Source of the DNA: a virus
DNA length: 64,000 nt
Strand: one strand, 5' to 3'
Virus record (IMG/VR): IMGVR_UViG_3300027850_000003
Span: 1 to 64,000 of that record
The notes below the pieces were generated by a model. The model was given only the letters and a program-made list of their open reading frames with translations. It was not told the DNA's origin and searched no databases. Position numbers and translations under genes: made by a program. This document shows, piece after piece, positions 10,218 to 63,047 of the stretch (positions are counted from its first letter, which is position 1; every line of letters starts with the position of its first letter).

Positions 10218-10970
10218 TTATCTAAGAATATTTTGAATAAAGTTTGAATAATCTTCTTTTATAGGTAAGTTTTCATCCACCTTTAATACTCTTCTAGTAG
10301 TTACAACTTCTTTTTCAGTAATTGGGTTATATCCTTTCTTTTCATAATTCTTCCAATAAATACCTGTACCTCTTCTCTGCCAAGTAGGAGTATCATTAAA
10401 GTTAATCCCGTTACTAAATAAAAGTTCATTTTTAAATTCTTTAGTTTGCTTATCTAGCATTGAAGTAGCTTTTCTAGCGCTATTACCTAGCTTTCTTAAT
10501 GTCCAATAAGACCATCCATTTAACGCACATCTGGTAGCATCCGCCTGTCTCCAGTTAAAATAATCTACTACTAAAGATTTATTAGCTAAAGAGCAAAGTC
10601 TGCTATCAAAACTAACTATCTTATTAGAAATGTAAGAAAAATTAGAGCTAGCGATACTAGCTGAGATAGATACTAGCTTTTCAACTGATTTGTCAAAAAG
10701 ATTCCAATTGTCAATAGGAAATAAAATAGATATTTCATCTGACTCAGTATAAGCATAAAGTCCTTCTAATTCAAGCATTAAAGCTTCAGTAGTCTCTACC
10801 ATGAAGTTATGAAATTTACAATCAAAAGGTTTGTTAAAATTCTCTAATTTAGTAAATTTAGAAAAAGAACGTCCATCAACTCTAATTATTGTATATGTTT
10901 CAGGTAGTAGTTTTAAACTGTGAAAATATTCAAAAGAACGCATCTTAGTCTCAAACATATCATTGTTCAT
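10218..10970 (-). CDS. tRNA(His) guanylyltransferase Thg1-like protein
   Basis: IRVDGRSFSKFT, KPFD, YTESDEISI, FDSR, YFNWRQAD and GINFND...RRG motifs. Confidence 0.93.
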   Translation of the reverse strand: MNNDMFETKMRSFEYFHSLKLLPETYTIIRVDGRSFSKFTKLENFNKPFDCKFHNFMVETTEALMLELEGLYAYTESDEISILFPIDNWNLFDKSVEKLVSISASIASSNFSYISNKIVSFDSRLCSLANKSLVVDYFNWRQADATRCALNGWSYWTLRKLGNSARKATSMLDKQTKEFKNELLFSNGINFNDTPTWQRRGTGIYWKNYEKKGYNPITEKEVVTTRRVLKVDENLPIKEDYSNFIQNILR

Positions 10971-12151: not shown

Positions 12152-12198
12152 TGTATTATTTATTTTATCTTAAGGCTCCAGAATTAAAATTTAATACA
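12152..12198. repeat. Left copy of 47-bp inverted repeat flanking helicase-like gene 1
   Basis: TGTATTATTTATTTTATCTTAAGGCTCCAGAATTAAAATTTAATACA matches reverse complement of 14235..14281 at 45/47 positions. Confidence 0.95.
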
Positions 12199-12474
12199 TT
12201 ATCGTTTCTATTTTTTCACTACTTTTTACTCTACTATCTTCTATTATTATATTTATTTTTAGAATTCATAAGTTTTACCTATTGTAATTTGGAGTTGGAT
12301 AGGAAATAGTGATGTTTTATTATCTAAAGTAGATAAATAGCGGGGAAAGATATATAAAATCGAGTAAGAACGCTTAAAAAAATATCTACTCAAAATGTAC
12401 TACTTTTAATTATAACCTTACTTTTTTTTGTACTATAATACTATTATAGCTCTTTATATACGAAAAAGTAATAG

Positions 12475-14234: not shown

Positions 14235-14281
14235 TGTGTTAAATTTTAATTCTGGAGCCTTAAGATAAAATAAATAACACA
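14235..14281. repeat. Right copy of 47-bp inverted repeat
   Basis: Reverse complement of 12152..12198 with 2 mismatches. Confidence 0.95.
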
Positions 14282-15729: not shown

Positions 15730-18700
15730 TTATTTACTTTTTTCTGGCATTAAACATTTATCTGAGTCACATCCTGTACTACCTGACTCCGCTACAAAGT
15801 CAAATCCTTTAGAATATTGGTTAACTAGAGTTACAAAGTCAGTAGAAATTTGTCTATTTTTTACTGCTTGCATTTCTTCTAAGTATTTCTCATGAGTAAT
15901 AGGTTCAAAAGGTAGTCTAGGAAACGTCTCTAGTGAGTCGAATTTCGCGAGTAAGGCAGCAGAGATGTAACCTTCATCATTTTGTATTAGGTTGTAGATA
16001 GCGGTTCCTAGTGGCTCGATTTCAGCTTCTGTGAGTTCGATAGTAGCTGAAACAGTATGAGTAGCATAGTATTTCTGAACTTGCATAAAAAAATCAAGTT
16101 GAGCTAGCACAGTGTTTTCGCTAGGGTTGTAATCTGCCTTATCCGCTATAGATGCCCAAGATACTTCTACTGGAATTTCTATTAACACTTCATTAACTCT
16201 TGGGTCATTTATGTCATTTAGTAGATTTCCATTTTCGTCTTTGCATGATTGAGAAGGAACAATATTATAGCCATAATCTTTACTAGCACTAACAATAGGA
16301 CTATTACTACTAAAAGTAATCCTACGAATATATCTAGTAGCTTTAGGAGCGTGCCAACCAGCCGAAGCATTAGTAAGTAAAGAAACGGAGCCTGAAGGTT
16401 GTACAACAGTATAACGATTAGGTTGTTTAATACTATGTCTTTTGCAATACTCTTCAACTGTTTCTCTTACACTATTTTTCCATAACTCTAAATAATAACG
16501 TTCAGTATCTAAGAAATATTGAGCTTCTGAAGAGTCTTTACTTCTTCCAGTTTTCCACCATAACAGCCAGTCAGCACCAAACTTATTGACAAAGAAATCG
16601 AATAATCCAGTAAAAGAAATTCCGATAATAGGATCAATTTCACGAGAATATTTAAAATCTTCAATATCAAATTCATGACTAAGTAAAGGTAAAGCTGCTA
16701 AGGTAGATGCTTTAAATGCTTCTACTTGTTCCAGTTCGTTATTTGGGTCTAAATTATTTAAATGTACTTGAGATAAGTTGCACAGAAATTTTTCACCTAA
16801 AACCTCAAAACAATTGTGAGTGACGATACCATTAGCAATAAAAGAGTTAGTTAATGGGACGTGTAAATCATAAACAGTTTCTTCTCCTACTTCTTTTACT
16901 GAAACTACATTAGAAGAATAACGTTTATTTACTGTCTCCTCTAAATAGTTTATTAAAGGTTTTTCTACCCATAAATCTGCTTGTTCTTGTTTAAGAGGAC
17001 AAAGAGGAAACCCAATTATTTCCACAAACCTATTAAAACTCTCAGCAAATATTGATAAAGTATAACTACCATTATTATTACTTATTTTTTTTGTACCATC
17101 TTTTAAAGTATACGGAACTCCTTTAGCTCCTGACTTTACAGCGCATCTAGTAGATGATATAATTCCTAAGTTTAAAAGTAAAATTTGTATTTGCTCTATA
17201 AATTTTTTTGATTTATTCACTAACAGTGCTTGACGAGCTACTGCTTTATTAATATTCCCTACTGAACCATCAGCAGAAAATAAACCTTGCAAAAAACCTA
17301 TAATAGTTTCTCTTCTCTCTTGAAAAAAGCTAACAGGTAACTCTTCTTTTGTTTGCACGTTTAATCTATCAAACCAATCACTTAACTTTAAAGAACAGGA
17401 TTTAAATTCATACACTCCTTTGTGTAGTCTAGGAATATATCTATGCTCAGTAATTGTCTCTAAAGCATAAAGAACTGTAGTTCCTGCTGTTAAATATTCT
17501 TTAGGATTAAATACGAATCCTTTAGCTAAATACTCCGCTCTATTTTTACTTCTGCTTTTCATTTTCACGTTATACCCATCACCATACCACCAACCTAGCA
17601 TTTGAGACTGTTCAGAATTAATATTATTCTTAGAATCTTCACCCCATTTTCCTTCTCCTTGTTGAAATAAAACTTTATGTTCGGAAGTTAAATTTTTAGT
17701 TTCTACCCAACCTTTATCCGTAAAATGTTGATGATTAGAAGTAGATTTAACAGACAAACCATTAGCTAGTTTTACTTCATAAATAGCTTTAACTCCTGTA
17801 GAAAATGCAATAGCCTGTGTTTGGATTACTCCAGAAAGACCAATAGTTCTTAAATCTACAGAAGTCTCAAAAGTTTTACCAGCTAAATCTTGAATAGGAA
17901 CTAAACCATTGGCAGTAGCAATTAGAGTATCCCCAATTAGGCAGGGGTTGGCAGAATACCGTTGCATTCGATGTTCTAGTTCTTTATTATCCATTTCTTT
18001 TAAAGATAGGAGATAGTTACTACCATCTCTTCTTGACTGACAATAGAGTGCAATAAACTCTAGCTTCTTTTCGCTTGTATTCAGTAAATCAACATTACCT
18101 CTAGCAATAGCTTCTGGAACATATTGAATTGCCCCTTCTCCTGAGTAGTATTGCTTTCTAACTGCTTCAATAATAGTTTCCAAATCAGGTTTATTATGGT
18201 AACAAAGAGTATGATTTCCAAATCTAAGCATATCTCGGTCAGGGTCAATTTTCCAGTTACCTTGATCATCCTGAACCCATAAATTATCTTTTGACTCAGA
18301 AAAGAATTTATCGCTTGGAGTTCCTTGATTAATTCTCGCACTTCTTCTGATGTTCCCGGAAACGGCTATTACCCCATGAATAGCTAAGATTTTACATATT
18401 TCTAAACTATTTAATTTTCTTCCTACTGAAGTGTTTAGTATTTTGATAATATTTTTAAGCCCTTCTTCTAGTCTCTCAGGGTTACTTAATCCTCCAAAAC
18501 CTTTAAGAATTTTCCCAGCAGGTCTTACTTCCGATAAATCTATATAAAGGTGAATTTTTTCATATTTTACATTTTCAAAGTTATAAGAGAAATCAAAGGA
18601 TGCAAATTTTAATAAGTCAGTAGCAATATCAACCCAACCTTCTTTAGAATCTCCTACTTTATATTTAATAACTAAAGCTTTAGAATCTGAGTCTAGTGAA

Positions 18701-19182
18701 CAAGTATAATTGCTACTCTCAAAGATATTATTCTCATTCCATTGAGAGCCTAGCTCAACTACTTCTTTTACTTCAATAGAGTAATTAATCTCGGGCAACT
18801 GACTAATAATATGCTCCTCAACTACTGTCCCAACTCCACATCCCATTAGTAAAGCTCTAAAGTTAAATCTAAACGCTTTCCAGCTATCTACTGGAACTGA
18901 GGCACAATTATATGCACCAATAAAGTTCTTCTGCTGTTTTACCCAGTCAGTACCTCCGATCCAAAACCATCTACCAGATACAAAGACAATGTTCTTATAA
19001 AAATACTCCCTAACTAACTCTAATTCTTTATCTGTCAACAATCCAAAATCTTGTAATCCTTTAATCGCTCTATCTTTAGCTTCTTGAGCTGTCTCCTTAG
19101 CCCCAGTTGCAGAAGTTCGAGAATAGCTACGAAGAAATAACGGGTAAGCAGTAGTAGCAGTGAAATCAGTATTCTGAGGCAT
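15730..19182 (-). CDS. nrdJ: Class II (adenosylcobalamin-dependent, monomeric RTPR-type) ribonucleotide reductase with intein
   Basis: SGRWFWIGGT, AYNC, GCGVG, GNIRRSA, ANP|C.E, LCNL, VQPSGSVSLL and C-terminal GCDSDKC motifs. Confidence 0.93.
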   Translation of the reverse strand: MPQNTDFTATTAYPLFLRSYSRTSATGAKETAQEAKDRAIKGLQDFGLLTDKELELVREYFYKNIVFVSGRWFWIGGTDWVKQQKNFIGAYNCASVPVDSWKAFRFNFRALLMGCGVGTVVEEHIISQLPEINYSIEVKEVVELGSQWNENNIFESSNYTCSLDSDSKALVIKYKVGDSKEGWVDIATDLLKFASFDFSYNFENVKYEKIHLYIDLSEVRPAGKILKGFGGLSNPERLEEGLKNIIKILNTSVGRKLNSLEICKILAIHGVIAVSGNIRRSARINQGTPSDKFFSESKDNLWVQDDQGNWKIDPDRDMLRFGNHTLCYHNKPDLETIIEAVRKQYYSGEGAIQYVPEAIARGNVDLLNTSEKKLEFIALYCQSRRDGSNYLLSLKEMDNKELEHRMQRYSANPCLIGDTLIATANGLVPIQDLAGKTFETSVDLRTIGLSGVIQTQAIAFSTGVKAIYEVKLANGLSVKSTSNHQHFTDKGWVETKNLTSEHKVLFQQGEGKWGEDSKNNINSEQSQMLGWWYGDGYNVKMKSRSKNRAEYLAKGFVFNPKEYLTAGTTVLYALETITEHRYIPRLHKGVYEFKSCSLKLSDWFDRLNVQTKEELPVSFFQERRETIIGFLQGLFSADGSVGNINKAVARQALLVNKSKKFIEQIQILLLNLGIISSTRCAVKSGAKGVPYTLKDGTKKISNNNGSYTLSIFAESFNRFVEIIGFPLCPLKQEQADLWVEKPLINYLEETVNKRYSSNVVSVKEVGEETVYDLHVPLTNSFIANGIVTHNCFEVLGEKFLCNLSQVHLNNLDPNNELEQVEAFKASTLAALPLLSHEFDIEDFKYSREIDPIIGISFTGLFDFFVNKFGADWLLWWKTGRSKDSSEAQYFLDTERYYLELWKNSVRETVEEYCKRHSIKQPNRYTVVQPSGSVSLLTNASAGWHAPKATRYIRRITFSSNSPIVSASKDYGYNIVPSQSCKDENGNLLNDINDPRVNEVLIEIPVEVSWASIADKADYNPSENTVLAQLDFFMQVQKYYATHTVSATIELTEAEIEPLGTAIYNLIQNDEGYISAALLAKFDSLETFPRLPFEPITHEKYLEEMQAVKNRQISTDFVTLVNQYSKGFDFVAESGSTGCDSDKCLMPEKSK
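16813..17943 (-). mobile_element. Intein with LAGLIDADG homing endonuclease (377 aa) in nrdJ
   Basis: Begins CLIGDT, ends VYDLHVPLTNSFIANGIVTHN followed by C; LGWWYGDG and FLQGLFSADG blocks. Confidence 0.95.
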
Positions 19183-52161: not shown

Positions 52162-55080
52162 TTAGCAGTGATTCAAAGCGTATTCTAACGCCTCTAGATG
52201 GTTAGTTAGGTTTTGGCTTATTGACTCTCTCCAGCTAGGTATGACTGTATCAAGTTTATGCTCTAGAGTGTCAATTGATAGCTGTAACAAACTCTCTATT
52301 CCCACGTTAGGCTGATAACTTTGGAAGATATCTATTAGCTGAATCTTGACTCGATAGTTCCAAGTCTGAGCTGAAGTATCTAATAAACTCCACGGTGTTA
52401 GAAGTACACCATCTGAAGTTCTAAAACCTATCTTGAGATTAGATAAAATATGTAGCTCATCAATGAATGCCCCCCAAACTATTTGCGAGTGATGTCCTCT
52501 AGTTTTGTAGTGAATACTAGCCAGTAGATCCCCAGGGTTTTTACAACTGAGAACTACTCCAGCTAACTCTAACTCTGCCTCTGATTTTGCCCATACTTTC
52601 CAGTTTTTGATCATTGCATCGAATAAAATCTGATTATCGTGTTGATCGTAAACCTCAAGAGTTAAGAGATTGACCAATTTTCCTATATTTACCTCCGAGT
52701 TTGAAGTATAAGGAATTGTGAACTTTTTAAACTCTTTTAGAACTTGTGGCAACCCTTTTGAGTTACCCGTGAACCCTAATAGATCCTTAGTAGACACTGT
52801 TTGAGTCGTTTTGTTTTCTCTCTCTCTTGAGAATAGTCGAACATTATTGTTGATAAACTTTTGACAAATAGCGTTTAGATCGCTTTGTGTTTTTTGAAGT
52901 AGATCAAAGTCTTTTCTCTCATTAGTACACTTAAGGAATGACTGCAAGTTATCCAGAGAAAAACCTAGAGATGATGAGACTTTGACTGGTATCTTACCTT
53001 GCCGTTCCTTATCTCCTATAGGTTTAGTGATTGAGATTAATTGGCGTGTTTGAATATCTCCGTTGAGATATATTTCAACTACTAGCCGTTTGTCAGTCCT
53101 AACAATCATCTCTGACTCGGAGTTAGTAAATGATTTGTCTACTTTCTCACCTTCCTTTAACCTCTTTTTGTAGAATGGGTATACAGACATTAGATGCGCT
53201 TTAATCTCATCATTAGTAGGATAATCTTCCTTAAAGTGCTTTGAGAGTATTTGTGGGATACGTCTCAACCAATTTATCACTAAAGGAATACTAGATCGCC
53301 GAGTAACTCTCTCATCCCCTAAGACTGTCATCGAATAGGTGGGCTTCTCAGTTTCTACTGTCTCAACTATCTTGATGTTGCCGAGTACATGGTATCGGTA
53401 GTAATTATCAGAGTAGCTAGATTCATGCTTTATGTAGTTCTCATTAAGCACAGATCGTATTGATTGTGTTGCTCCTAGAACATCTGTTTTATCAGGTTTT
53501 ATTCCTGATTTGATGTTAGACGTTAGTTGGTCTAATTGAGAGATGATTAGATTGACATTAGTATTAGTGTTTTTTAACTGCACTAATTCAGTTATCTGCT
53601 TAGCTATATGCTCTAACAAATCCCTAGATGGGAGTTTATCAGAAAGATAAATGGTTAAGTCTAATGGATTAGTCCTTATTGGCAGTGCGATTAGTTGCCA
53701 TTGTTGATTAGACTTCTGTACTGTTAAGATACATGGGACGTTTCCTAAGATTGTTCTTAACTGCAATTCGTGATTGTTAGTCCGGGAACCATCGATCTTG
53801 ACTGGTTTAGGTTCTACTCTCTCTGTGATTGTGGCAGGTTTGGGGGGTGATGCGGGTAAATTAGGATGATCAAAACCTTTAAACCATACCGGGGAAACTA
53901 GAAATTTTTCTTGTACTTTGTTTGCAGAAGATACATCCACTTTCTGATTTACACTATCAAGGTATCTCAGAGACTTTGAGGTTTCCCAATGATTAGAATC
54001 TTTATCCATTGGGGATAGGTGTTCTAGACCTATTTTCCACACAGAGAGATCCGGGAATATTTCAGGATCAGAAACTATTGGGTGTAAGTTATGCTCGTTA
54101 GAATCTTTGTTGAAATATGCTAAATGTCTACTCTCCGGGTCAAAGTATGCTATTTTACTCATCCCCTGCACCCACCTACTATCCACTTTCTTGAGATAGG
54201 TTTGGCACAAAAAAGTTTTTTCTTTCTCCTGCACTTTGATAATAGACGGCTCTAATAATGATGCATAGATAGGAGCCGACTCTCTCCCATTTCTTTCTAT
54301 TATCGAACCTTTGCGGTTTTTGATTTCTGCGATTTTCTGTGAGCGATGCACTACTTTTCTCAAATTGCCATCTTGATTGACTTCATAACTTACCGCCGGA
54401 TAGCAGTAAAGAGTCACGGCGTTATATTTTCCGGTTTCTAACTCCCTAATAAAATCTGACTTTTGCCCGGTGGCAGACAGTAAAGCGTTAAGGAATGGCT
54501 CGATGTCCTCATACTTTAAGATTGTTGGGATCTTGACGATCCTGTTTTCTGAATCTTTTTGCCCCATGAAGATAGGGATAGAAAGAGCTAAGTCTTCATC
54601 ATCATCATCATCAGAATTACCAGTTACTGGATCTGAAATCGTTGATTGCTCGACTATCTCAGGTGGATCAATAGGTTCCGAGTCAAAATCATCACTATCA
54701 CCATCATCATCTGAGAATAAATCACTAATCAGTCCGGAGGATACTTTTTCAGTAAACGGGGCAACAGGTGTAGTCTGATTAACCTCTGCTACTTTTTGCG
54801 GTTCATTTATACCTCCGAATAGACCAGTCTCAACACTAAACTCAACATCAACCTCAGCACCATAAATTTGTAATAGCTTTACGTCAGGCAATCTCCCTAA
54901 CGCAGTTCTTAGCTCAGAAATTTTAATCACTCTGCAAGTATCAAAAACTCTTAAAGCTTGACGATCCCATTCATAAACAACACTCTCAATCGTGAAGGTG
55001 AGTAATAGAGGATACTCCGTAAATGCAGATTTCAGAAGATTAAAACCTTCAATCTTATCTTTGATTTTGGGATTGTACAT
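52162..55080 (-). CDS. Large hypothetical early protein (972 aa)
   Basis: Long ORF with GGAG RBS; acidic linker near aa 120-165; no recognised motif. Confidence 0.7.
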   Translation of the reverse strand: MYNPKIKDKIEGFNLLKSAFTEYPLLLTFTIESVVYEWDRQALRVFDTCRVIKISELRTALGRLPDVKLLQIYGAEVDVEFSVETGLFGGINEPQKVAEVNQTTPVAPFTEKVSSGLISDLFSDDDGDSDDFDSEPIDPPEIVEQSTISDPVTGNSDDDDDEDLALSIPIFMGQKDSENRIVKIPTILKYEDIEPFLNALLSATGQKSDFIRELETGKYNAVTLYCYPAVSYEVNQDGNLRKVVHRSQKIAEIKNRKGSIIERNGRESAPIYASLLEPSIIKVQEKEKTFLCQTYLKKVDSRWVQGMSKIAYFDPESRHLAYFNKDSNEHNLHPIVSDPEIFPDLSVWKIGLEHLSPMDKDSNHWETSKSLRYLDSVNQKVDVSSANKVQEKFLVSPVWFKGFDHPNLPASPPKPATITERVEPKPVKIDGSRTNNHELQLRTILGNVPCILTVQKSNQQWQLIALPIRTNPLDLTIYLSDKLPSRDLLEHIAKQITELVQLKNTNTNVNLIISQLDQLTSNIKSGIKPDKTDVLGATQSIRSVLNENYIKHESSYSDNYYRYHVLGNIKIVETVETEKPTYSMTVLGDERVTRRSSIPLVINWLRRIPQILSKHFKEDYPTNDEIKAHLMSVYPFYKKRLKEGEKVDKSFTNSESEMIVRTDKRLVVEIYLNGDIQTRQLISITKPIGDKERQGKIPVKVSSSLGFSLDNLQSFLKCTNERKDFDLLQKTQSDLNAICQKFINNNVRLFSRERENKTTQTVSTKDLLGFTGNSKGLPQVLKEFKKFTIPYTSNSEVNIGKLVNLLTLEVYDQHDNQILFDAMIKNWKVWAKSEAELELAGVVLSCKNPGDLLASIHYKTRGHHSQIVWGAFIDELHILSNLKIGFRTSDGVLLTPWSLLDTSAQTWNYRVKIQLIDIFQSYQPNVGIESLLQLSIDTLEHKLDTVIPSWRESISQNLTNHLEALEYALNHC

Positions 55081-55109
55081 TTTTCTCCGATGCCTTAGTA
55101 ACAGGCTAT

Positions 55110-55164
55110 GGCTAACTAGGGAATTGCACCTTAGTGATGGGCTTTATTTATTTACCTAATAGCC
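55110..55164 (-). ncRNA. Mini tRNA-like element 7
   Basis: GGCTA/TAGCC; CTAAGG-TGCAATT-CCCTAG. Confidence 0.6.
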
Positions 55165-55595
55165 GTTAGACTACAAGCCTTTGATTTGTTCTAAGTAGAT
55201 CGAAAAATCATCCTGTTGTGCTTTGTTTTTCTCTATTAGCTCTTTCAAAGATGCTAGAAGACCATCAATAAAATTACACCTTTCAGAGATAGGGAGCAGG
55301 TCTCCGTTATCCACCAGCCACGGTAAATTTACTATACCGTCATCAGCTTTATAGTATATTCCAACTTTCCCATCGTACTCTAATAAAAAATCTCCCTCTA
55401 AGCTATCTCGTATGTAACTCTCGACTTCTGTGTAAAGGATCTTTTCGATGACTAAATCAACTAATTTCTCAAACTGATTTTTGGTTAGTGACATGATTTT
55501 CTTTATCTTTCTAACGTGTTTTCTCAGTCAGTATAGATCACTTTTTAAGTAACCTATATTTGATGAGATGTCCTTAGTTACCTCGGACGATTGAG

Positions 55596-55883
55596 TTATG
55601 GGAATAGTCTATTTGACTCTGCAATTAAAGAGATAAGCTCAACAGTTTCAAATGTCCTTTGAGATTTTTCACTTCCTAGTGAGATATAATTGAAATCTCT
55701 GTCACATATCAAATCTAAATACTGAATAGAATTAGCACGTATTCCGACTTTACTCATTGTTACTATCTGATAAGCGTTCCCATTGGTGAAGTGTTCAGTG
55801 AATGTCACAACGTCCCAATCGCGGAATAAATCAGGTGCATCTTTAACTGTGGAAGCTACTGTGTACTGTGTTTGAGTAGTCAT
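55596..55883 (-). CDS. Hypothetical protein (paralog of 56800..57414 N-terminal half)
   Basis: MTTQTQ.TVASTVK and DLICDRDFNY shared. Confidence 0.65.
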   Translation of the reverse strand: MTTQTQYTVASTVKDAPDLFRDWDVVTFTEHFTNGNAYQIVTMSKVGIRANSIQYLDLICDRDFNYISLGSEKSQRTFETVELISLIAESNRLFP

Positions 55884-55926
55884 TGTGTATCCTTTGTGTA
55901 AAAGTCACCCGGAATTAGGTAACAAA

Positions 55927-55976
55927 GCTCTAATCAAGACTTTCACTTGATAGTAAGATATAAGAACCTATAGAGC
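55927..55976 (-). ncRNA. Mini tRNA-like element 8 (TTCTTATAT subfamily)
   Basis: GCTCTA/TAGAGC; TAGG-TTCTTATAT-CTTA; ATCAAG-TGAAAGT-CTTGAT. Confidence 0.75.
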
Positions 55977-56229
55977 AGTTAGACTTAGTAATTTTCCGTT
56001 TCTACGGTAATCTTGAATCCCACTACCTTTAGATACATTTTGAAGTGCGATTTCTCAACACCTTTACCTCCTACATCTACAAAATTACTCTTATAGTAGA
56101 CGTTGAACCGCCCATCATCAGTGTACATTCCCACATTCAGTGCATCAGAAAACAAGTCGATAGAACCGTTAGCAGTTACGATTAATGTCATGGTCTTAGC
56201 AGCTAGTCGGTAAAGAATTACTAGCAACA

Positions 56230-56290
56230 CTCTTTCTAGGAGTCGAACCTAGATCAAGCTAACCCGATTATTTAATCGTATAGCAAAGAG
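56230..56290 (-). ncRNA. Mini tRNA-like element 9
   Basis: CTCTTT/AAAGAG; CTAGG-TTCGACT-CCTAG; extended middle arm GCTA..CGATTA/TAATCG..TAGC. Confidence 0.7.
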
Positions 56291-56743
56291 AAGAAATTAG
56301 ATGCGGGGATAATTTTGTATATCCGTCTCGCAGAACTCTAGGTATTCTACACTATTTAGCTCCACCTGCTCGTTGTAAGCAGCGTTTGTATCCGAGATAT
56401 GCTCAGGTTGTTTAGTAACAGGTTTTACTAATTTAGCTTTGGGATTGCGTGTGCGTTGTGTCGCTAGGTTTCCCCAGCTTACTACCTCAAAGTTTGGTTC
56501 GATCCAGTTCCCCCAGTCACTTTTATTAGTAGAGCCAATTGGAAAGTGAGCCGGACTTTGACTCGCCCACAGTTTAGCTTGACCTATTGCCTTTACCTCC
56601 GACAGGAAGAAGCTAACAGTGATCCCGCCTGGATTAGGTACACTCCAGAACTCATTAAGATTGACAGAAGTGTTAATTGTGTTAGTGGTAATCATGGTAC
56701 AAGATAAGCTACATGGAATAAGAAATTTCTCATATAGCTAATT

Positions 56744-56792
56744 CCCCAAATAAGACTTTCACTTAAAAGACAGATATAAGAACTGTTAGGGC
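56744..56792 (-). ncRNA. Mini tRNA-like element 10 (TTCTTATAT subfamily)
   Basis: CCCTA/TGGG closing; ACAG-TTCTTATAT-CTGT (covariant); TAAG-TGAAAGT-CTTA. Confidence 0.7.
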
Positions 56793-56799
56793 GGTTGAG

Positions 56800-57414
56800 T
56801 TAGATGATAAAACAGAACACGTTACGGATGAACTCAACACTTTTCATTTTCTCTCCGTCAATTTTCCCGTAGTGGAATAAAGCAGAACATAACCTATCAT
56901 CAATTTCACCTACACTTCCTCTGAACGCTCCTAGTATTCGCCAAAAGCAGATACTTACTACACAATCATCATCACATTGAATGTGGATTATAGCATCTGA
57001 TATTGGGTGCAAACCTTCTGCACGGAATACCAAGTTACCTAGTGAATATTGCAAGATTTTGGCTGATGAGTCTAAGACTTGTTCCTTCAAGGATTGACTT
57101 TTGATCGTACCCGTAGCTGACAAGGTTTTTACCTCATAATCCAGTTCCCGTTGCCTGATGCTTTCTAGTGCGTTATCTGATGCTGAGAGATAATTGAAAT
57201 CTCTGTCACATATTAAGTCAGTAAAGTGATTAGAGCTGGCGCTCAGTTCATTTTTACTCGTCACTACTATCTGGTAGATACCTCCGTAATTAGCAACATA
57301 TTCAGTCGATGTTACAACGTGCCAACTCGAAAATAGCTCAGGTACGTCACCTTTAACTGTAGAAGCTACTGTAGGCTGTGTTTGAGTAGTCATGTGCTTT
57401 CTCCGATAAGTCAC
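56800..57414 (-). CDS. Hypothetical protein (paralog of 55596..55883 with C-terminal extension)
   Basis: Shared N-terminal domain; true start probably ATG at 57393. Confidence 0.6.
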   Translation of the reverse strand: MTYRRKHMTTQTQPTVASTVKGDVPELFSSWHVVTSTEYVANYGGIYQIVVTSKNELSASSNHFTDLICDRDFNYLSASDNALESIRQRELDYEVKTLSATGTIKSQSLKEQVLDSSAKILQYSLGNLVFRAEGLHPISDAIIHIQCDDDCVVSICFWRILGAFRGSVGEIDDRLCSALFHYGKIDGEKMKSVEFIRNVFCFII

Positions 57415-57432
57415 CCGGTATTAGGTAACGAT

Positions 57433-57483
57433 GCTCTAGTTAAGATTTTCACTTAACAGTTAGGATATAAGAACCTATAGAGC
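57433..57483 (-). ncRNA. Mini tRNA-like element 11 (TTCTTATAT subfamily)
   Basis: GCTCTA/TAGAGC; TAGG-TTCTTATAT-CCTA; GTTAAG-TGAAAAT-CTTAAC. Confidence 0.75.
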
Positions 57484-57920
57484 GGTTGAGTTAATCCTTT
57501 AGACGATCCATGATGTCATCTTTTGTCATCCAAGCTTGATACATTGAGTCTAACTTAGAATGAATTCGGCAACCTGTACTGATAAACTCTTCCCCGTCCT
57601 CATCAAGGTGAGACTGGAATGAGAAACCGCACGATGATTTAAAAATGCAATGTACCAGTTCCCCGACGATGTAGGGAGTGCCAACTACTTTTAACTGCCA
57701 CCGGATCGAGTTTGGATTACCGAGATAGTCAAGAGTCTCAAACTGAAAACCCGCATCGACTAAGTTGTGCTCAATCTTTAGTGCCTGTGAGACTTGGGTT
57801 AACAGTTCAGCAACCTCTGGGTTAGAAGAGAGATACTGTTGGCAGAATGCAGTTTGTGTAATAGCCATTTGATTTTCTCCGTTTGTTGTGTGTAAAAGTC
57901 ACCCGGTAGTGAGTGACAAA

Positions 57921-57981
57921 GCTCATAGAAGGAATCGAACCTTCTTCTCTTGATTTGAGATTGTCCCGCACACGATCGAGT
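57921..57981 (-). ncRNA. Mini tRNA-like element 12
   Basis: AGAAGG-TTCGATT-CCTTCT T-arm; CTC/GAG closing stem. Confidence 0.6.
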
Positions 57982-58184
57982 AACTCCTAAGAGATTTTAG
58001 ACCGTGATTAGTAGGTGACTTATTTTCCCGGGCGGGCTAGATAACTATTATAGTAAGAACTTTTTAGCTCCTACCTAGCAACCTAGATCCGCGGGGATGA
58101 TTTGAGGTACGCAGGTAACTTAGCGATCTCTTATCTTTGATATCTCCTCCTGGTAACTTAGGAAGTGTGTTTCTTAACTCTTAT

Positions 58185-58213
58185 AATCTATCTTTTATCT
58201 CTTAGAGTGTCAA
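58185..58213 (-). promoter_or_regulatory. Sigma70-type early promoter
   Basis: TTGACA-17 bp-TAGATT pointing into the early region. Confidence 0.8.
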
Positions 58214-58345
58214 GTCTTTTTAAACTTTTCTCTTATAAGATTTTCTGATGGACTAAAGGTTAGAAGTTCCTTTTAGGCTTATGAAAGCTTTAAAGGTTTG
58301 GCGCGGTTAGAGTGCTGTGTGTGTCCTCCCCGTTTCCATGTATTT

Positions 58346-58374
58346 AAGATAACAAGTCTTTAGGGATGTGTCAA
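58346..58374 (-). promoter_or_regulatory. Sigma70-type early promoter with extended -10
   Basis: TTGACA-17 bp-TATCTT preceded by TGn. Confidence 0.75.
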
Positions 58375-58998
58375 GCCCTTAAGCGTGTTACTTTCAAACT
58401 ACTTTTCCACTACACGTCTCGGTATCTCTTAAGACTTCTAAGGTGGTCTATAGGGATATAGATAGATAGTACATTTAACGCTCCAGCATCGGTTGAGCAG
58501 GAAGATAGAGCCATCTGGTAGCATTCTGGTAAGGATTAATAGGGATAATATAAGCAATCCCATGTAGTAGTCTGATAATGGACTAGGGTTCCACTACTAA
58601 ATAGGGATAGGGCTTAGGTCTAGCTGAGATGGTAGCAGTCTATGGGAGTACAGGTATAGTAGACGCTCTCGAACCATTACACAGTCTATGGTCTAGGTTC
58701 ACAATCAATCGAACACCTATATATAAGGATCATAGGGTAGCAGATAGTTATCAGATGTCAAGTTAAAATATCTTATAGGTATAATGGATGGAATAGGGAA
58801 TGGTTATATGGAGGTATGTATATGATATATAAGTGAGAGTATACAATGTATAAGAGGCATATTTTGGGGATTTGTGAGTTATTACCCCCTTAACCCTATA
58901 ACAACTAAACCAAACCTAATAACAAATAACCACATTAAATATTAGTTTAAAATACCAAGTAGAATAAGAATAGAGAACATTAATAGTAGATATACAAT

Positions 58999-59673
58999 AT
59001 GGCATTTGAAAAGAAATGGGATTGGGAGTCAATCAGAATGGACTATATGATAGGAGAGATATACATTAATAAGAGTGGTTTAGAAACACATCGACCATTC
59101 ACCATCGCTCGACTATCTGAAAAACATGGAATTCCAAACCCTACAATAGCTGAAAGATGTAAAAAAGAAAAATGGGTTCATCAACGTAACCTATTAGACT
59201 CTCAACTAAAAAGAAGAATGACTGAAGGTAAAGTCACTTCTATATTAGGAGAAGCTAGTATGTTTGATAACTTAGCTCTTGCACAACTAGGTAAAACTAG
59301 CGAATTAGTAAACGCCTATTTTAAACAATATACTGATGTCTTAGCTAGGGACATTAACACTTATGAGTTAGAGTCAGAAGTATACGAACCTCCTAAGATT
59401 AATCCCAGAGACTTAAAGGATATAGTAGGAGTAATCAAAGAAATCCATACCTTATCCAAAGTAATAATGGGAACAGATACTCTCCAAGACAAACTAGAAG
59501 AGATACAAAATAAAAATAAGACTAAACAATTTAAACCCACTGAGATGAATGACAGGATCAAAAAACTCTTAGAGGAAAGACAACGAATGCAATCTATGAT
59601 GAGCCAAGAGAAACGAGCAGTTGAGGAAGTAAATATCTTCAACGTAAAAACAATAACTGAGATAGAATCTTAA
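58999..59673 (+). CDS. Probable terminase small subunit
   Basis: DWESIRMDY...TIARLSEKHGIPNPTIAERCKKEKW HTH pattern typical of TerS, coiled-coil C-terminus. Confidence 0.65.
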   Translation: MAFEKKWDWESIRMDYMIGEIYINKSGLETHRPFTIARLSEKHGIPNPTIAERCKKEKWVHQRNLLDSQLKRRMTEGKVTSILGEASMFDNLALAQLGKTSELVNAYFKQYTDVLARDINTYELESEVYEPPKINPRDLKDIVGVIKEIHTLSKVIMGTDTLQDKLEEIQNKNKTKQFKPTEMNDRIKKLLEERQRMQSMMSQEKRAVEEVNIFNVKTITEIES

Positions 59674-59683
59674 CCCTTAATAT

Positions 59684-59718
59684 AAAAAGAACTCCTTAGC
59701 TAAATACTAGGGAGTTTT
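59684..59718. terminator. Bidirectional intrinsic terminator
   Basis: AAAAAGAACTCCTTAG...CTAGGGAGTTTT between convergent genes. Confidence 0.7.
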
Positions 59719-60579
59719 ATTACTATAAGAGTTAAAAAAGGAGCTTTGAAACTATCTTAACTCCTATACTTTCCAGTTATCTAAGTTAGTAATATCTAAA
59801 TCATTAGTAGCAAAATGTTCAACTGCTTTATCAGTAGCTTTAGTAAAGTCCTGGTCAATGAAAGCTTTTATTTTATAAGACTTCTCACTATGCTCAATAG
59901 TTAAATAATTATGCTTAGAGTCTAATAGTGAAAGAGTTAAGAGGTATTTATTACAGAAGCTAGGTAGCTGCTTAGGAATAGCCACATAGCATGAACCACA
60001 CTCTTCAACGTTTCCCATTAAATTATTATTGAGATCAATCCATTGACATTTAGAGACTTTAACAGTAGTGATAGAAGGTTTAATAGTAAATTCTTTTTTC
60101 TCCAATTGAGCTATTGACTTTTTACTTGCTAAGTCAGTTTTTTCTATTTTTTGTTCAGGTATTTGGTAGCAGTATTCATAACCAGAAGAGAAGAAGGAGT
60201 CTAAATAGTCTACTTGAGTAAACTTATCGAAGTAGGAATGATTATAGATAATAATAGTACCAAATTCAGTATCAATCCTTTTCTTAATGTGGATGATATC
60301 TTCTTTATTACGGATTAGGAAATTAGTAAGTATTTGCTGAATCATTATTTTATTATTAATAGTTTTCTAGTTACTCCTTACATTATAGCAAGATAAGAGC
60401 TATTCTCCTAGCTACTAATATAGGAATGAGAGAACGAGTTCAGGCGAGAGAAAGAATGAGACTTAGTTACCTTGAGTTATTGGAAGAGTAGGATTCTTCC
60501 TTTTTTTACTGTAACTATACTTTTGGTTAGTCTATTATTTCAGATATTTTTGGAAAAACTTACAAAACTTATTTATTAG

Positions 60580-60610
60580 ATTCCATTTTTTACAGTAATT
60601 ATTCAGTATA
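60580..60610. repeat. Left copy of 31-bp perfect inverted repeat flanking helicase-like gene 2
   Basis: ATTCCATTTTTTACAGTAATTATTCAGTATA equals reverse complement of 62507..62537. Confidence 0.95.
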
Positions 60611-60644
60611 ATAGATATATAAACTAATAAAAAAGGTAATATCT

Positions 60645-62477
60645 GTGTCTGATATAATTAAAATCCAAGCTCCTGAGTCTGCTCTTTATATGAGTAACTT
60701 TATGACTGAGCTTCCTCACGGCATTATAAATAAAAAAGCTTGCGGAGTAGGAGGTAGTTTCATTGCTATTACTAATCCAGAGAATTATATTATTGCTGTA
60801 CCTACTACAGAATTAATAAAGAATAAATGTTTTCAACACTCTGATTTACTAGGTATTTACTCAATTAAAGATAGTGGAGTTACCTTCAAAATGTTTAAAG
60901 AGTATATTGAGACTCATAAAGTCTTTAAGATAATGACAACCTATGATTCTTTACCTAGAGTAGTCAAATGGTTAAAAGCTTTAAAATTAAATGTCTATGA
61001 AGACTTTAAACTTTTAATAGATGAGTACCATAAAATTCTTAGTGATTATAGTTATAGAGATAAAGCAATACAAGGGCTATTAGAAGAGTCATTAAAATTT
61101 AACTACTATACTTTCCTTTCTGCTACTCCGATTAACCCTAAGTTTATTCCTAAAGAATTAGTCGAATTACCTTACTATGAAATTGAATGGCATAGTACCA
61201 AAAGTATTAAACCTTATAGGAAAAAGACTGCTAAACCTTTACTTCATGCAGCTCATATCATTAGCAATTATAAAGCTAATAACTATTCCGCTGAACTTAA
61301 AGTAGACGGACAAATCTGTATTAGTAATGAAGCGTATTTCTTTGTAAACTCAGTTCATTCTATAGCAGATATCTTACACGCAACTAACTTAGTTCCAAGT
61401 GAAGTAAAAATTATCTGTGCTAATAATTCCACTAATAGAGATGTGTTAGACCCTTTTCCTATTTCATCAGTAACAGATACAAATAAACCTTTTACATTTG
61501 TTACTTCTAAATCTTTTTTAGGATGCGACTTCTACTCAGAAAGTGGGATAGTTTATATGATTAGTAATGTAAATAAGAAACATACTCTACTAGATATTTC
61601 AACTGATATTTTTCAGATTAGTGGGAGAATCAGAAATACTAATAATCCTTTTAGAAATATTCTTTTCCACATTTATAATACTGGAACTTCTGATTTAACT
61701 AAAGAAGAGTTTGAAACTATTTTAGAAGAGAAAGTAGCTAATACTAATGTTCAAATAGAAACTTTTAATGGACTAAGTGAACTAGCAAAGAAAGCTAATC
61801 TTAAAAGATACTCAATGGATTTAGAAGATGATTATAGTTATTACAATCCAGATACTAATCTCTTACAATTTAATGAACTAAAGAAACTAAATGAAGAGTT
61901 TCAGTTTAGTATTATCAATGATATTTATACTAATGGTTTCTCAGTTAGAAGTGCTTATGAAAATGCAGGATTTGATGTAAGTGAAGATCAAGAATATATT
62001 TCCTATGAAGAAGATTTCATTGAAAATATGACAAAGATTAGCTTCAAAGGTATCATGCTAGAGTATTGTAAGCTAGCAGATAATATTGAGAATTTAGATT
62101 TAGAATTTGTAAACAGTAGAAGATTTACTTTAGAAAAACTAGCTCAAGAAAATTTATCATTAGATATAAAAGAGATAGTAAAAAAAGTAGGAACTAAAAG
62201 AATCCGAACACTAAATTATGCTAAAGTAGCTATCAACAAAGAATTATATAGCAAGTGTGATGAGGTGAAAGATGCTATTAGTGAAGCGATCTACAACAAA
62301 CTAGAGAAGAATACTTTTTATTCTACAGCTCAAATTAAACAAGTTTTAGGAAAAATTTATAAAGATTTTAAGATTGAAAAAACACCTAAAGCAGTAGAAC
62401 TTGATAAATATTGTAGTATTCGCAAGGTAAGTAGAACTGTAGAAAATAAATTAGTTAAAGGAGTCTTTATAGTGTAA
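60645..62477 (+). CDS. SF2-like helicase/origin-binding-like protein (paralog of 12475..14154)
   Basis: CGVGGS, AVPT, TYDS, IDEYH, SATP, FLGCDFY and QISGRIR motifs. Confidence 0.75.
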   Translation: MSDIIKIQAPESALYMSNFMTELPHGIINKKACGVGGSFIAITNPENYIIAVPTTELIKNKCFQHSDLLGIYSIKDSGVTFKMFKEYIETHKVFKIMTTYDSLPRVVKWLKALKLNVYEDFKLLIDEYHKILSDYSYRDKAIQGLLEESLKFNYYTFLSATPINPKFIPKELVELPYYEIEWHSTKSIKPYRKKTAKPLLHAAHIISNYKANNYSAELKVDGQICISNEAYFFVNSVHSIADILHATNLVPSEVKIICANNSTNRDVLDPFPISSVTDTNKPFTFVTSKSFLGCDFYSESGIVYMISNVNKKHTLLDISTDIFQISGRIRNTNNPFRNILFHIYNTGTSDLTKEEFETILEEKVANTNVQIETFNGLSELAKKANLKRYSMDLEDDYSYYNPDTNLLQFNELKKLNEEFQFSIINDIYTNGFSVRSAYENAGFDVSEDQEYISYEEDFIENMTKISFKGIMLEYCKLADNIENLDLEFVNSRRFTLEKLAQENLSLDIKEIVKKVGTKRIRTLNYAKVAINKELYSKCDEVKDAISEAIYNKLEKNTFYSTAQIKQVLGKIYKDFKIEKTPKAVELDKYCSIRKVSRTVENKLVKGVFIV

Positions 62478-62506
62478 TTACCTTTTCTCTAAGTATTTTT
62501 ATCCTA

Positions 62507-62537
62507 TATACTGAATAATTACTGTAAAAAATGGAAT
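62507..62537. repeat. Right copy of 31-bp perfect inverted repeat
   Basis: Reverse complement of 60580..60610 (31/31). Confidence 0.95.
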
Positions 62538-62562
62538 ACTAAGTTATAATAGAGGTAGTTAA

Positions 62563-62895
62563 GTGAGAACTCTCAGCATTAAATTACCTCTTTCTTTTAT
62601 GACCTATTTCAATTTAAAACCAGTCCAAGACCAGAAAGGAATCTATCTTCTATACGTTAAAGATGAGCTTGCTTATGTAGGTAAAAGCAATAATATTTTA
62701 ATAAGACCACAACAGCGTTTTTATATTACAGATAAAGAATCATCTACTAAAGATATAGATAGAATTGAATATTATGTTTGTAACTCCTTAACAGACTGTG
62801 AACGACTAGAGACTTATCTTATTAATACTTTTGCTCCTAAATATAATTTAGATGAAGTTTCTCCTGATAAATTAACTTTAGTAATTGGTAATTAG
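62563..62895 (+). CDS. Stand-alone GIY-YIG domain (paralog of the N-terminus of 45064..45879)
   Basis: GIYLLY...YVGKSNNI.IR...LETYLI...PKYN; lacks the C-terminal domain. Confidence 0.75.
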   Translation: MRTLSIKLPLSFMTYFNLKPVQDQKGIYLLYVKDELAYVGKSNNILIRPQQRFYITDKESSTKDIDRIEYYVCNSLTDCERLETYLINTFAPKYNLDEVSPDKLTLVIGN

Positions 62896-63047
62896 TAATA
62901 GTCTATTTTGTTTTTTTTTATCCATAAATATCTCATAGTAGAGGTAATAAGTTAATATACTTAATTGAGAGATAGAAAGAATAAACTAACTCATTTATCT
63001 TTCTTCTCTTCAATAAAGTACACTAAATATAGTACATAAAAAATAAG

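Follow-up and report, generated by a model that had tools for sequence, protein, structure and literature searches.

A 31-bp inverted repeat around a helicase-like phage gene as a possible leader duplication at the joint of a single-gene cassette

The window analysed here covers positions 1 to 64,000 of the virus record IMGVR_UViG_3300027850_000003, which is 129,969 bp long (~31% G+C). Within it, the open reading frame (ORF) 60645..62477 encodes a helicase-like protein and is framed by a perfect 31-bp inverted repeat (IR). This gene is designated P2, as one of five paralogs (P1 to P5) in the record. We tentatively read the repeat as a young inverted duplication of the leader of the gene, which may serve as the joint of a swappable single-gene cassette; this is the reading that we favour, with the proviso that it may well prove wrong. 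The 31 bp would then be the still-perfect outer half of a 61-bp inverted leader duplication that comprises a -10-like box and the ribosome-binding region, and the framed cassette would carry a single gene, for a superfamily 2 (SF2) helicase-like protein with a DNA-binding-type C-terminal domain. The gene would have multiplied to five copies in variable regions of a freshwater phage lineage, with its cassettes being replaced, inverted and lost among co-circulating strains through exchanges that join at short leader copies. The downstream inverted copy of the leader could stem from an inversion or from a replacement in the opposite orientation, and recombination or gene conversion between the arms may keep the outer 31 bp identical. 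As a consequence, the gene could flip and yet keep the same leader, a flip being the same recombination as a conversion, and a weak promoter would face inward at the 3′ end of the gene. Binding of the protein to the arms is not needed for this reading.

The repeat around P2 and the repeats of its paralogs

As claimed in the original prediction, positions 60580-60610 (ATTCCATTTTTTACAGTAATTATTCAGTATA) and 62507-62537 are perfectly complementary, with 34 nt separating the left copy from the GTG start (60645) and 29 nt separating the stop (62477) from the right copy. In fact, these 31 bp are the outer half of a longer IR (60580-60640 / 62477-62537) of 61 nt at 85% identity, in which 54/61 positions are matched with one gap. 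Since the repeat extends to 61 nt, its arms abut the ORF: the left arm ends 4 nt before the GTG start, and the right arm overlaps the last base of the stop codon (0 nt). Identity between the arms is uneven, being 31/31 in the outer half and then ~23/30 inward, and this is what a conversion tract would leave. The 31-mer itself has only two sites in the whole record with up to 3 mismatches allowed. A third, partial copy at 60497-60518 corresponds to the first 22 nt of the arm at 86% identity; it points the same way as the left arm, from which it is separated by 84 nt on the upstream side, and it shares sequence with the T-run of a terminator-like hairpin (60482-60500; z -2.15 versus shuffles). 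Altogether the repeat motif has just 3 copies in the record. Both TATAAT boxes that had been predicted were found, one in the left arm (60607-60612) and one after the right arm (62545-62550), and a Shine-Dalgarno-like AAGG run (60634-60637) lies inside the left arm. The arms begin with ATTCCATTTTTTA and end with its near-complement TAAAAAAGGTAAT, 35 nt apart. Outside the arms the flanks read TTATTAG and ACTAAGT, with no target-site duplication. The coordinates of the features discussed here are collected in Table 1.

Table 1. Positions in the record of P2, its repeat arms, its paralogs and associated features
Feature	Position	Strand	Remarks
P1	12475..14154	-	559 aa
P1 IR arm	12152..12198		partner 14235-14281
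P1 IR second arm	14235..14281		81 nt upstream of P1 start
P1 leader unit TTACTTTTT-36 nt-AAAAAGTAA	14167..14220	-	adjoins start codon
Partial third arm copy of P2	60497..60518	+	homology with strains L086, X3 and X4 starts here
Left IR arm of P2	60580..60640	+	perfect core 60580-60610, then 60611-60640 at lower identity
P2	60645..62477	+	610 aa, GTG start
Right IR arm of P2	62477..62537	-	perfect core 62507-62537
Small GIY-YIG nuclease ORF	62563..62895	+	probable start ATG 62601; just outside right arm
P3	87098..88876		paralog
P4	102520..104304		paralog
P5	119410..121092		paralog

To judge the role of chance, we scanned the whole record for perfect IRs with arms 100-6000 nt apart and used 30 first-order Markov simulations as the control. 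Five perfect IRs of at least 16 nt were present, measuring 39, 31, 26, 17 and 17 nt, whereas the longest IR per simulated sequence measured 15-20 nt. The three longest flank P1, P2 and P4, with inter-arm gaps of 2044, 1896 and 1868 nt, respectively. A chance origin of the flanking IRs is therefore excluded, given that the simulations top out at 20 nt against the 39, 31 and 26 nt observed. The earlier argument that two such units in one genome make chance unlikely is supported, and P4 is a third IR-flanked paralog.

The record contains the five full-length paralogs plus a copy of the C-terminal domain within another gene. The supposed paralogy of P1 and P2 holds, the two proteins being 33% identical across their full length (E 2e-96). 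Around P1, the IR 12152-12198 / 14235-14281 spans 47 nt at 96% identity, of which 39 are perfect. It had been claimed that the IR of P2 is unrelated to this one; this is so for the long arms, which are private to each unit, but not for a 10-nt inner inverted pair beside the ORF ends that is common to both units (AAAAGGTAAT in P2 and AAAAAGTAAT in P1) and that in P1 sits 11 nt and 2 nt from the ORF ends. The shared inner 10-mer reads AAAA[A/G]GTAAT, and the P1 ortholog in the related record G003 has AAAAAAAGTAACA. The motif AAAAAG[GT]NAA is not a general ribosome-binding signal, with 4/29 occurrences lying within 15 nt of an ORF start. The P1 leader unit recurs at 12418-12471 beside the stop codon, in direct orientation as judged by its inner 36 nt, and a similar leader pair lies upstream of P5. 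With z values of -0.01 to -1.13, the hairpins inside the arms and inside the leader units of P1 and P5 do not exceed shuffled sequence in stability, nor does the genome show an enrichment of perfect 9-nt stems at the leader-pair spacing; we treat the leader pairs of P1, of the P2 arms and of P5 as shared sequence signatures, not as structures. No flanking IR was found at P3 or P5. At P3 there are direct-orientation copies of a promoter-like motif as well as a hairpin terminator, and at P5 a convergent GIY-YIG gene runs into the 3′ end. When viral contigs, from which the record itself may have been excluded, were scanned for exact matches to the arm cores of P2, P1 and P4, each core gave 0 matches, a DNA search of a phage collection gave no match, and a locus search in viral contigs with a single protein found none. 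The DUF932 neighbour of P1 had no homolog in 5 related records, and hence no empty site could be sought for P1.

The overlap of the left arm with a promoter box had also been taken to suggest autoregulation. For P2 this argument has lost much of its force. TATAAT occurs 103 times in the window on both strands (1.6 per kb), so that its overlap with the arm means little by itself, and the promoter scan detected no sigma-70-type site over the left arm on the + strand, the TATAAT having no -35 element at 16-18 nt. Around P2, 14 promoter-like sites were found against a shuffle mean of 13.0, which is no enrichment, and such sites were not enriched around P1 or P4 either. The sole promoter match within an arm of P2 (TTTACA-16-TAGGAT, 9/12) faces inward on the right arm. 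The case is better for P4, where a good match (ATGACA-17-TATAAT, 11/12) overlaps the arm.

Divergence and turnover among strains

Strains were compared by means of the metagenome contigs L085, L086 and L087, together with Logan contigs of four coded runs (X1-X4); the runs that hold the stretch carry mainly freshwater and salt-lake metagenome labels, and RNA accounts for 0/9 of the runs listed. The statistics on arm divergence rest on two contigs, L085 and L086. L085 is 98.5% identical to the window and differs at 30/1990 positions in 60576-62565. The IR persists in this strain, as only 1/125 arm positions differs (60585, A to G); in the ORF 21/1833 positions differ, 18 of them at third codon positions, with 0-1 amino-acid changes. 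In L086, a 95% strain in which the protein is 97% identical, 99 positions differ. Its arms differ at 13/125 positions (10.4%) versus 51/611 third codon positions (8.3%), and the IR arms thus appear to decay at about the synonymous rate in this strain. The two arms of L086 match each other at 48/59 positions, the left arm of L086 matches the right arm of the window at 50/61, and the reverse pairing gives 49/61. As the arms of L086 are no more alike than these cross-genome pairs, they drift independently, without concerted evolution. Position 60585 / 62532 is the sole position changed on both arms in L086.

The third contig, L087, has flanks that are 95% identical up to 60472 and from 62997. Between these borders it carries a helicase-like gene that is 56% identical in protein, together with a diverged GIY-YIG gene, and this allele at the P2 locus has no IR. 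Since the P2 IR is kept in L085, decayed in L086 and absent from L087, it is young in evolutionary terms.

The homology of L085 with the window starts at 60569-60580, which is the outer edge of the left arm, and the ~125 nt upstream are unlike the window. The homology of L086 starts at 60495-60500. Among the Logan contigs, X2 contig 15 begins at 60580, while X3 contig 20 and X4 contig 25 begin at 60500. There are thus two classes of breakpoint, 60569-60580 (L085, X2) and 60495-60500 (L086, X3, X4), and both coincide with the 5′ starts of direct leader copies. In addition, contigs of X2 and X3 depart from the window sequence at 60469/60470, and X4 contig 27 joins 62562 to 62997, without the GIY-YIG gene. 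A joint of 59175 to 60803 in X3 was ignored, since one of its sides comprises only 21 letters. In the probable source run the contigs end at either arm because the 31-bp repeat forces a stop at k=31, and this has no bearing on orientation.

Cassette turnover at the locus is further supported by an insert in L086, by the inversion or loss of a neighbouring ORF and by the facultative GIY-YIG gene. The insert measures 444 nt and precedes the P2 cassette (L086:1372-1816); within it, L086:1545-1665 is 69% identical to window positions 60707-60827 and represents a remnant of another helicase-like N-terminus. This is what remains of an earlier, different allele. In L085, as in contigs of X1 (minor) and X2, the neighbouring 193-aa ORF (59764..60345, - strand; segment 59735-60371) has the opposite orientation, and L086 lacks it. 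In L085 the old leader of this ORF (60345-60494) was left in place and now faces the 3′ end of the gene. The 193-aa ORF is a cassette of its own. The GIY-YIG ORF 62563-62895 is missing from L086 as well as from the X4 contig and is therefore considered a facultative gene of the homing-endonuclease type.

The helicase-like protein and its wider family

P2 comprises an SF2 helicase-like core (~residues 4-460), a low-confidence linker (447-454) and a C-terminal domain (457-610). Its AlphaFold model (predicted local distance difference test, pLDDT, 83.8) predicts an SF2 helicase fold with two tandem RecA-like domains: for residues ~4-460, VIA-align gave Z 20.0 to Prp2 (6zm2; root-mean-square deviation, rmsd, 3.9, with 291 residues aligned), while eIF4A and DbpA scored Z ~19, and the Foldseek matches were at E ~1e-10. 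Motifs II (D126-E127), III (S159-A160-T161) and VI (QxxGRxR; Q324/G327/R328/R330) show no variation among 29 homologs, and each of the 5 paralogs has them. The Walker A pattern GxGK[ST] of motif I was not found; the loop of P2 reads NKKACGVGGS. Across homologs motif I takes the form NKxxxGxGxS/T, with G, M, C or L at the lysine position in the 5 paralogs, and the invariant K30 sits 6 residues upstream of the usual position of the motif I lysine.

Neither Pfam, NCBIfam nor PADLOC yielded a family match for the helicase-like protein, apart from a PADLOC match of P1 to Cas3d at E 0.0028, and PHROGs gave a weak partial match only. According to PMC3632103, D2 of phage T5 carries PF02399 (Herpes_ori_bp / UL9-D2). 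This family had no match at E up to 0.1 for P1 or P2, and a profile of 29 sequences searched against solved structures hit no UL9 chain at E up to 1. The UL9 structure 9hgi was the top Foldseek match (E 1.1e-10), tied with Brr2, BLM and DbpA, and UL9 was absent among the 50 best VIA-align entries. By profile, the protein is not a member of the UL9/D2 family.

The prediction that the C-terminal domain has diverged was confirmed: at 21-34% identity between paralogs it is the most diverged part of the protein, compared with 39-59% for the helicase core and 22-51% for the middle part. Modelled alone, this domain reached pLDDT 90.3. Its last ~70 residues gave winged-helix matches to Nse1 (7dg2) and to the DNA-binding domain of RFX (1dp7), both at Z 5.6 (for 1dp7, 66 residues were aligned at rmsd 2.9), and a match at Z 5.0 was to the C-terminal region of the primase-helicase of phage NrS-1 (6k9c); all of these scores (5.0-5.6) lie below the VIA-align reliability bar of 8. 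Pfam detected no family shared by 21 C-terminal domains. Homologs of this domain also form the C-terminal part of the products of two GIY-YIG nuclease genes. One lies beside P5 (genome 121036-121827; L011:3130-3921, - strand), and the other lies downstream of the helicase-like gene in L087 (L087:3020-3835, domain at L087:3527-3835). In GIY-YIG homing enzymes of the I-TevI type the C-terminal part is a DNA-binding module. Because GIY-YIG nucleases carry its homolog, which is the better evidence, and because of the winged-helix matches, weak as they are, the domain 457-610 is plausibly DNA-binding, and it appears that the GIY-YIG nucleases borrowed the putative DNA-binding module of their neighbour, or the reverse. 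We know of no description of nucleases whose DNA-binding module is homologous to the C-terminal domain of a neighbouring protein. No longer fused homologs (1069-3050 aa) were found. Two homologs of 915-919 aa have an N-terminal extension that lacks a Pfam match even at E 5, and for a cluster fused to BT4734-like_N (Atlas, TM 0.70) the sequence gave no confirmation.

At E up to 0.001 the helicase-like family comprises 208 database clusters, with members in gut Bacteroidales phages and in integrase-linked elements of Bacteroides and Prevotella genomes. In five related records the copy number is 1, 1, 2, 2 and 3 (one of the two matches in G002 being partial), as compared with 5 in this record; of the large relatives the two closest are G003, with 2 copies, and G004, with 3, and the orthologs of P1 and P5 have different neighbours in these two genomes. 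No comparable flanking IR was present in 6/6 loci of named or gut phages, in 56/56 IMG/VR viral loci, where the longest perfect one measured 13 nt and direct-repeat controls reached 15 nt, or in 31/31 bacterial loci (mostly Bacteroidales, one Pseudanabaena). Even the P1 ortholog L077, at 69% identity, had 13 perfect nt at most. Judged by these loci, the long IRs are not a family trait. The original prediction had proposed a family of IR-gene elements and had itself named absence of the IR from orthologous loci as an argument against one. Such absence is what was largely found, in the 56/56 viral and 31/31 bacterial loci, the 69% P1 ortholog and L087; what stands of the proposal is that this record has 5 paralogs, 3 of them with private IRs, whereas IRs are not general in the wider family. 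Among the bacterial homologs, a tyrosine integrase lies within 3 kb in 4/5 loci (L099, L105, L115, L120 and L103, from Bacteroides, Prevotella and Pseudanabaena), and HNH endonuclease genes adjoin the homologs in L099, in L103 and in Psychrobacter phage D'Alembert.

Candidate explanations, known systems and the surrounding genome

The nearest documented mechanism for the P2 locus is that of the promoter-early stem-loop leader motifs (PeSLs) of T4-type phages. Two papers (Arbiol et al. 2010, PMC2839356; Comeau et al. 2014, PMC4122927) describe these motifs as flanking variable genes, with recombination there inserting, deleting or replacing cassettes, and state that recombination in T4 needs <50 bp of homology. 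Like PeSLs, the P2 arms are a short composite leader motif before the start codon of a single gene in a variable region, and the strain indel and replacement joints of the locus fall in copies of the motif. PeSLs are direct repeats that have a ~100 bp genome-wide consensus and a G/C-rich stem-loop and that give rise to excised mini-circles; the P2 copies, in contrast, are inverted and private (3 in the record), they form no stable hairpin, and no circles or flips were observed.

Several of our observations speak against a leader duplication that acts as a cassette joint. No breakpoint at the right arm was seen, the sampled strains all running to 62562 or beyond, and no inverted or excised P2 cassette was detected: the cassette faces one way in all three spanning assemblies (window, L085 and L086), a point on which k=31 contigs are uninformative. 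The hairpin formed by the A-run and T-run of the arm is no stabler than shuffles (z -0.45 and -0.90), so that the stem-loop part of a PeSL is lacking in the P2 arms, and the repeat, with only 3 copies, has no genome-wide consensus of the PeSL kind. Moreover, relatives do have weaker IRs, with 25 nt at 92% for L078, 23 nt at 91% for L074, 15 perfect nt for L075 and 13 perfect nt for L077, accompanied by direct-orientation matches of similar E-value in the same G003/G004 loci. Perfect complementary runs of at least 9 nt within 45 nt of the ORF ends were found in 6/42 non-redundant loci, as opposed to 2% of mismatched upstream/downstream pairs. This points to a tendency of the family towards ORF-framing repeats, with the long IRs being special to this phage, and the recurrence of weak or short framing IRs hints at something family-specific. 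Finally, the leader-joint model alone leaves unexplained why all three long IRs of the record belong to one family.

That last fact would find a direct explanation if the repeats were cognate sites, each C-terminal domain binding its own repeats as operators, as looping sites or as origin-like initiator sites comparable to those of herpes simplex virus 1 UL9 at oriS. We regard this as possible though rather doubtful. It would accord with the C-terminal domain being the most diverged region, with the presence of this domain in GIY-YIG endonucleases that sit beside helicase-like genes, with the winged-helix matches of the last ~70 residues (1dp7 and 7dg2, Z 5.6), with the enrichment of short ORF-abutting IRs, and with the inner 10-mer common to P1 and P2 and its counterpart in the P1 ortholog of G003; the bacterial homologs near tyrosine integrases (4/5 loci) also occupy a usual place for replication genes. 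Yet long IRs are absent from the 56/56 viral, the 31/31 bacterial and the 6/6 named or gut phage loci and from the closest orthologs, the arms of L086 decay at ~synonymous rate with the protein still 97% identical, the winged-helix Z scores stay under the reliability bar of 8, and the match to UL9 is tied with Brr2, BLM and DbpA, falls outside the 50 best VIA-align entries and is not backed by PF02399. A distance of 1.9 kb between the arms is, furthermore, unlike any known origin geometry. The resemblance to UL9 consists in an SF2 core followed by a C-terminal domain that could bind DNA and in inverted sites near the gene; unlike UL9, P2 has no PF02399 match and lacks the GK[ST] lysine in motif I. 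UL9 boxes lie tens of bp apart around an AT-rich spacer, unlike the P2 arms, which are 1.9 kb apart around a gene. In an extended form of this idea, which we consider unlikely, the helicase-like proteins would be sequence-specific initiators or remodellers that read inverted sites via a winged-helix module, GIY-YIG nucleases would have borrowed the module to cut the sites of rivals, and the whole would form a self-spreading, orientation-independent cassette in large phages, of which the long perfect repeats would mark the most recently active copies.

The position of the arms immediately at the start and stop codons (4 nt and 0 nt in P2; 11 nt and 2 nt for the inner pair of P1) could instead reflect pairing in the RNA, where the 5′ leader and the 3′ trailer would hide the ribosome-binding site and create an RNase III substrate, so that expression would limit itself, as in retroregulation or in the processing stems of rRNA. 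Indeed, the AAGG at 60634-60637 would pair with CCTT at 62481-62484, a G-U pair would survive the sole arm change in L085 (A to G, 60585), and the same position is changed on both arms in L086. We nevertheless judge RNA pairing to be quite improbable: if the TATAAT at 60607-60612 is a -10 box, the perfect 31-nt core precedes the transcript start, a terminator-like hairpin (60482-60500, z -2.15) lies just upstream, the core in L086 has 2 uncompensated changes and an indel, with complementarity no better than in cross-genome pairs, and no reason is given for the limitation to one gene family. The neutral-like decay of the arms, along with remnants of earlier cassettes 100-500 nt away in L086 and L085, would suit a scar, in which the right arm is left over from an earlier, oppositely oriented copy of the cassette and has no present role. 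A single genome would then have acquired three independent perfect cores, each of 26-39 nt, all very recently, and the boundary would have to match the stop codon to the base, for which reasons we give a functionless scar little credence, as little as RNA pairing. A transposon-like unit, with terminal inverted repeats acted on by the helicase-like protein and perhaps by the GIY-YIG nuclease, seems highly improbable. The gene-between-IRs layout does occur three times in the record, orthologs do lie in different genomic contexts, and one strain breakpoint falls at the outer edge of the left arm; contigs of many homologs also measure ~2.0-2.9 kb, as if repeats broke the assemblies, although short contigs are the rule in that collection anyway. 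However, there is no target-site duplication (TTATTAG / ACTAAGT), the arms differ between copies and none is common to two, neither Pfam, PHROGs, NCBIfam nor PADLOC gave a match to a transposase, integrase or recombinase family, an empty site was not found, strain breakpoints do not fall at the right arm, and in most genomes the family moves between contexts without IRs.

Other known arrangements resemble the P2 locus in part. Invertible segments (Mu G, P1 C, Hin/Gin type) and insertion sequences have a gene-sized segment between inverted repeats, as do the P2-type units with their 26-47 bp repeats. An invertible segment of the Hin/Gin type was rejected, as no recombinase domain lies in or beside the unit and 3/3 spanning assemblies share one orientation, the k=31 contigs being uninformative. 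An insertion sequence was rejected likewise, given that there is no target duplication and no transposase family and that the arms are unique to each unit. The free-standing GIY-YIG homing endonucleases of T-even phages (Seg type) co-convert flanking markers. As with these, the GIY-YIG gene at the P2 locus lies in intergenic space, is present or absent between 95%-identical strains, and has neighbour alleles that change as whole blocks, sharply bounded at 60472 and 62997; homing would account for the replacement of alleles, not for the inverted repeat. For the Ssn nucleases, Chenal et al. 2025 (PMC11893778) describe an NTS-ssnA-NTS arrangement, in which the gene is framed by its recognition repeats. 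P2 is similarly framed by inverted copies that its product might recognise. In Ssn it is the GIY-YIG nuclease gene that is framed, and the repeat occurs in hundreds of copies, whereas the arms of P2 enclose a helicase-like gene, leave the GIY-YIG gene outside and belong to repeats of 2-3 copies each. An Ssn-type cassette was ruled out on the grounds that the GIY-YIG ORF lies outside the arms and that the repeat has 3 copies. A limited full-text search of the literature found no description of the helicase-like gene family or of its repeats.

The mechanisms by which variable regions of large phages turn over are known in detail only for T4-type phages. With its strain-resolved breakpoints, a five-copy family, three inverted frames and a nuclease that shares the C-terminal module, the P2 locus offers a compact system for studying the exchange, flipping and spread of single genes in co-infecting phages. 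The helicase-like protein is itself widespread, has no curated family and possesses an odd ATP-binding loop; if the arms were indeed binding sites, the locus would give both the function of the protein and its target sequence.

As for the neighbourhood, the GIY-YIG ORF 62563-62895 matches PF01541 at E 2.5e-05, above the family cut-off, and nuclease genes adjoin the helicase-like gene in the window, in G004 (L081) and in L087, and also lie beside P5. Direct repeats of 18-24 nt, ~1505 nt apart, occur in window 55686-57906 (55686/57190, 55866/57376, 55957/57464), and in all four runs contig joints cluster at 56.8-57.9 kb, in a duplicated, rearranging stretch with a G+C of 0.41. No tRNA genes were found in 45000-59000. 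Elsewhere in the window, a B12-type ribonucleotide reductase gene (15730-19182, - strand) is interrupted by an intein with a LAGLIDADG domain, and a Thg1-like tRNA-His guanylyltransferase (10218-10970, - strand; PF04446 at E 2.2e-31 plus Thg1C) has a 73%-identical homolog in G004. The longest direct repeat of the record lies outside the window; it is a perfect 32-nt repeat (122427-122458 / 125961-125992) with a spacing of 3534 nt. A 307,959-bp metagenome contig holds the P2-type locus twice (L088 and L089), 153,935 nt apart, and therefore looks like a head-to-tail double of a ~154 kb genome. Together with the 148.6-kb relative G001, which is rated complete, this doubled contig suggests that the present record (130 kb, rated 42% complete) is nearer 85% complete.

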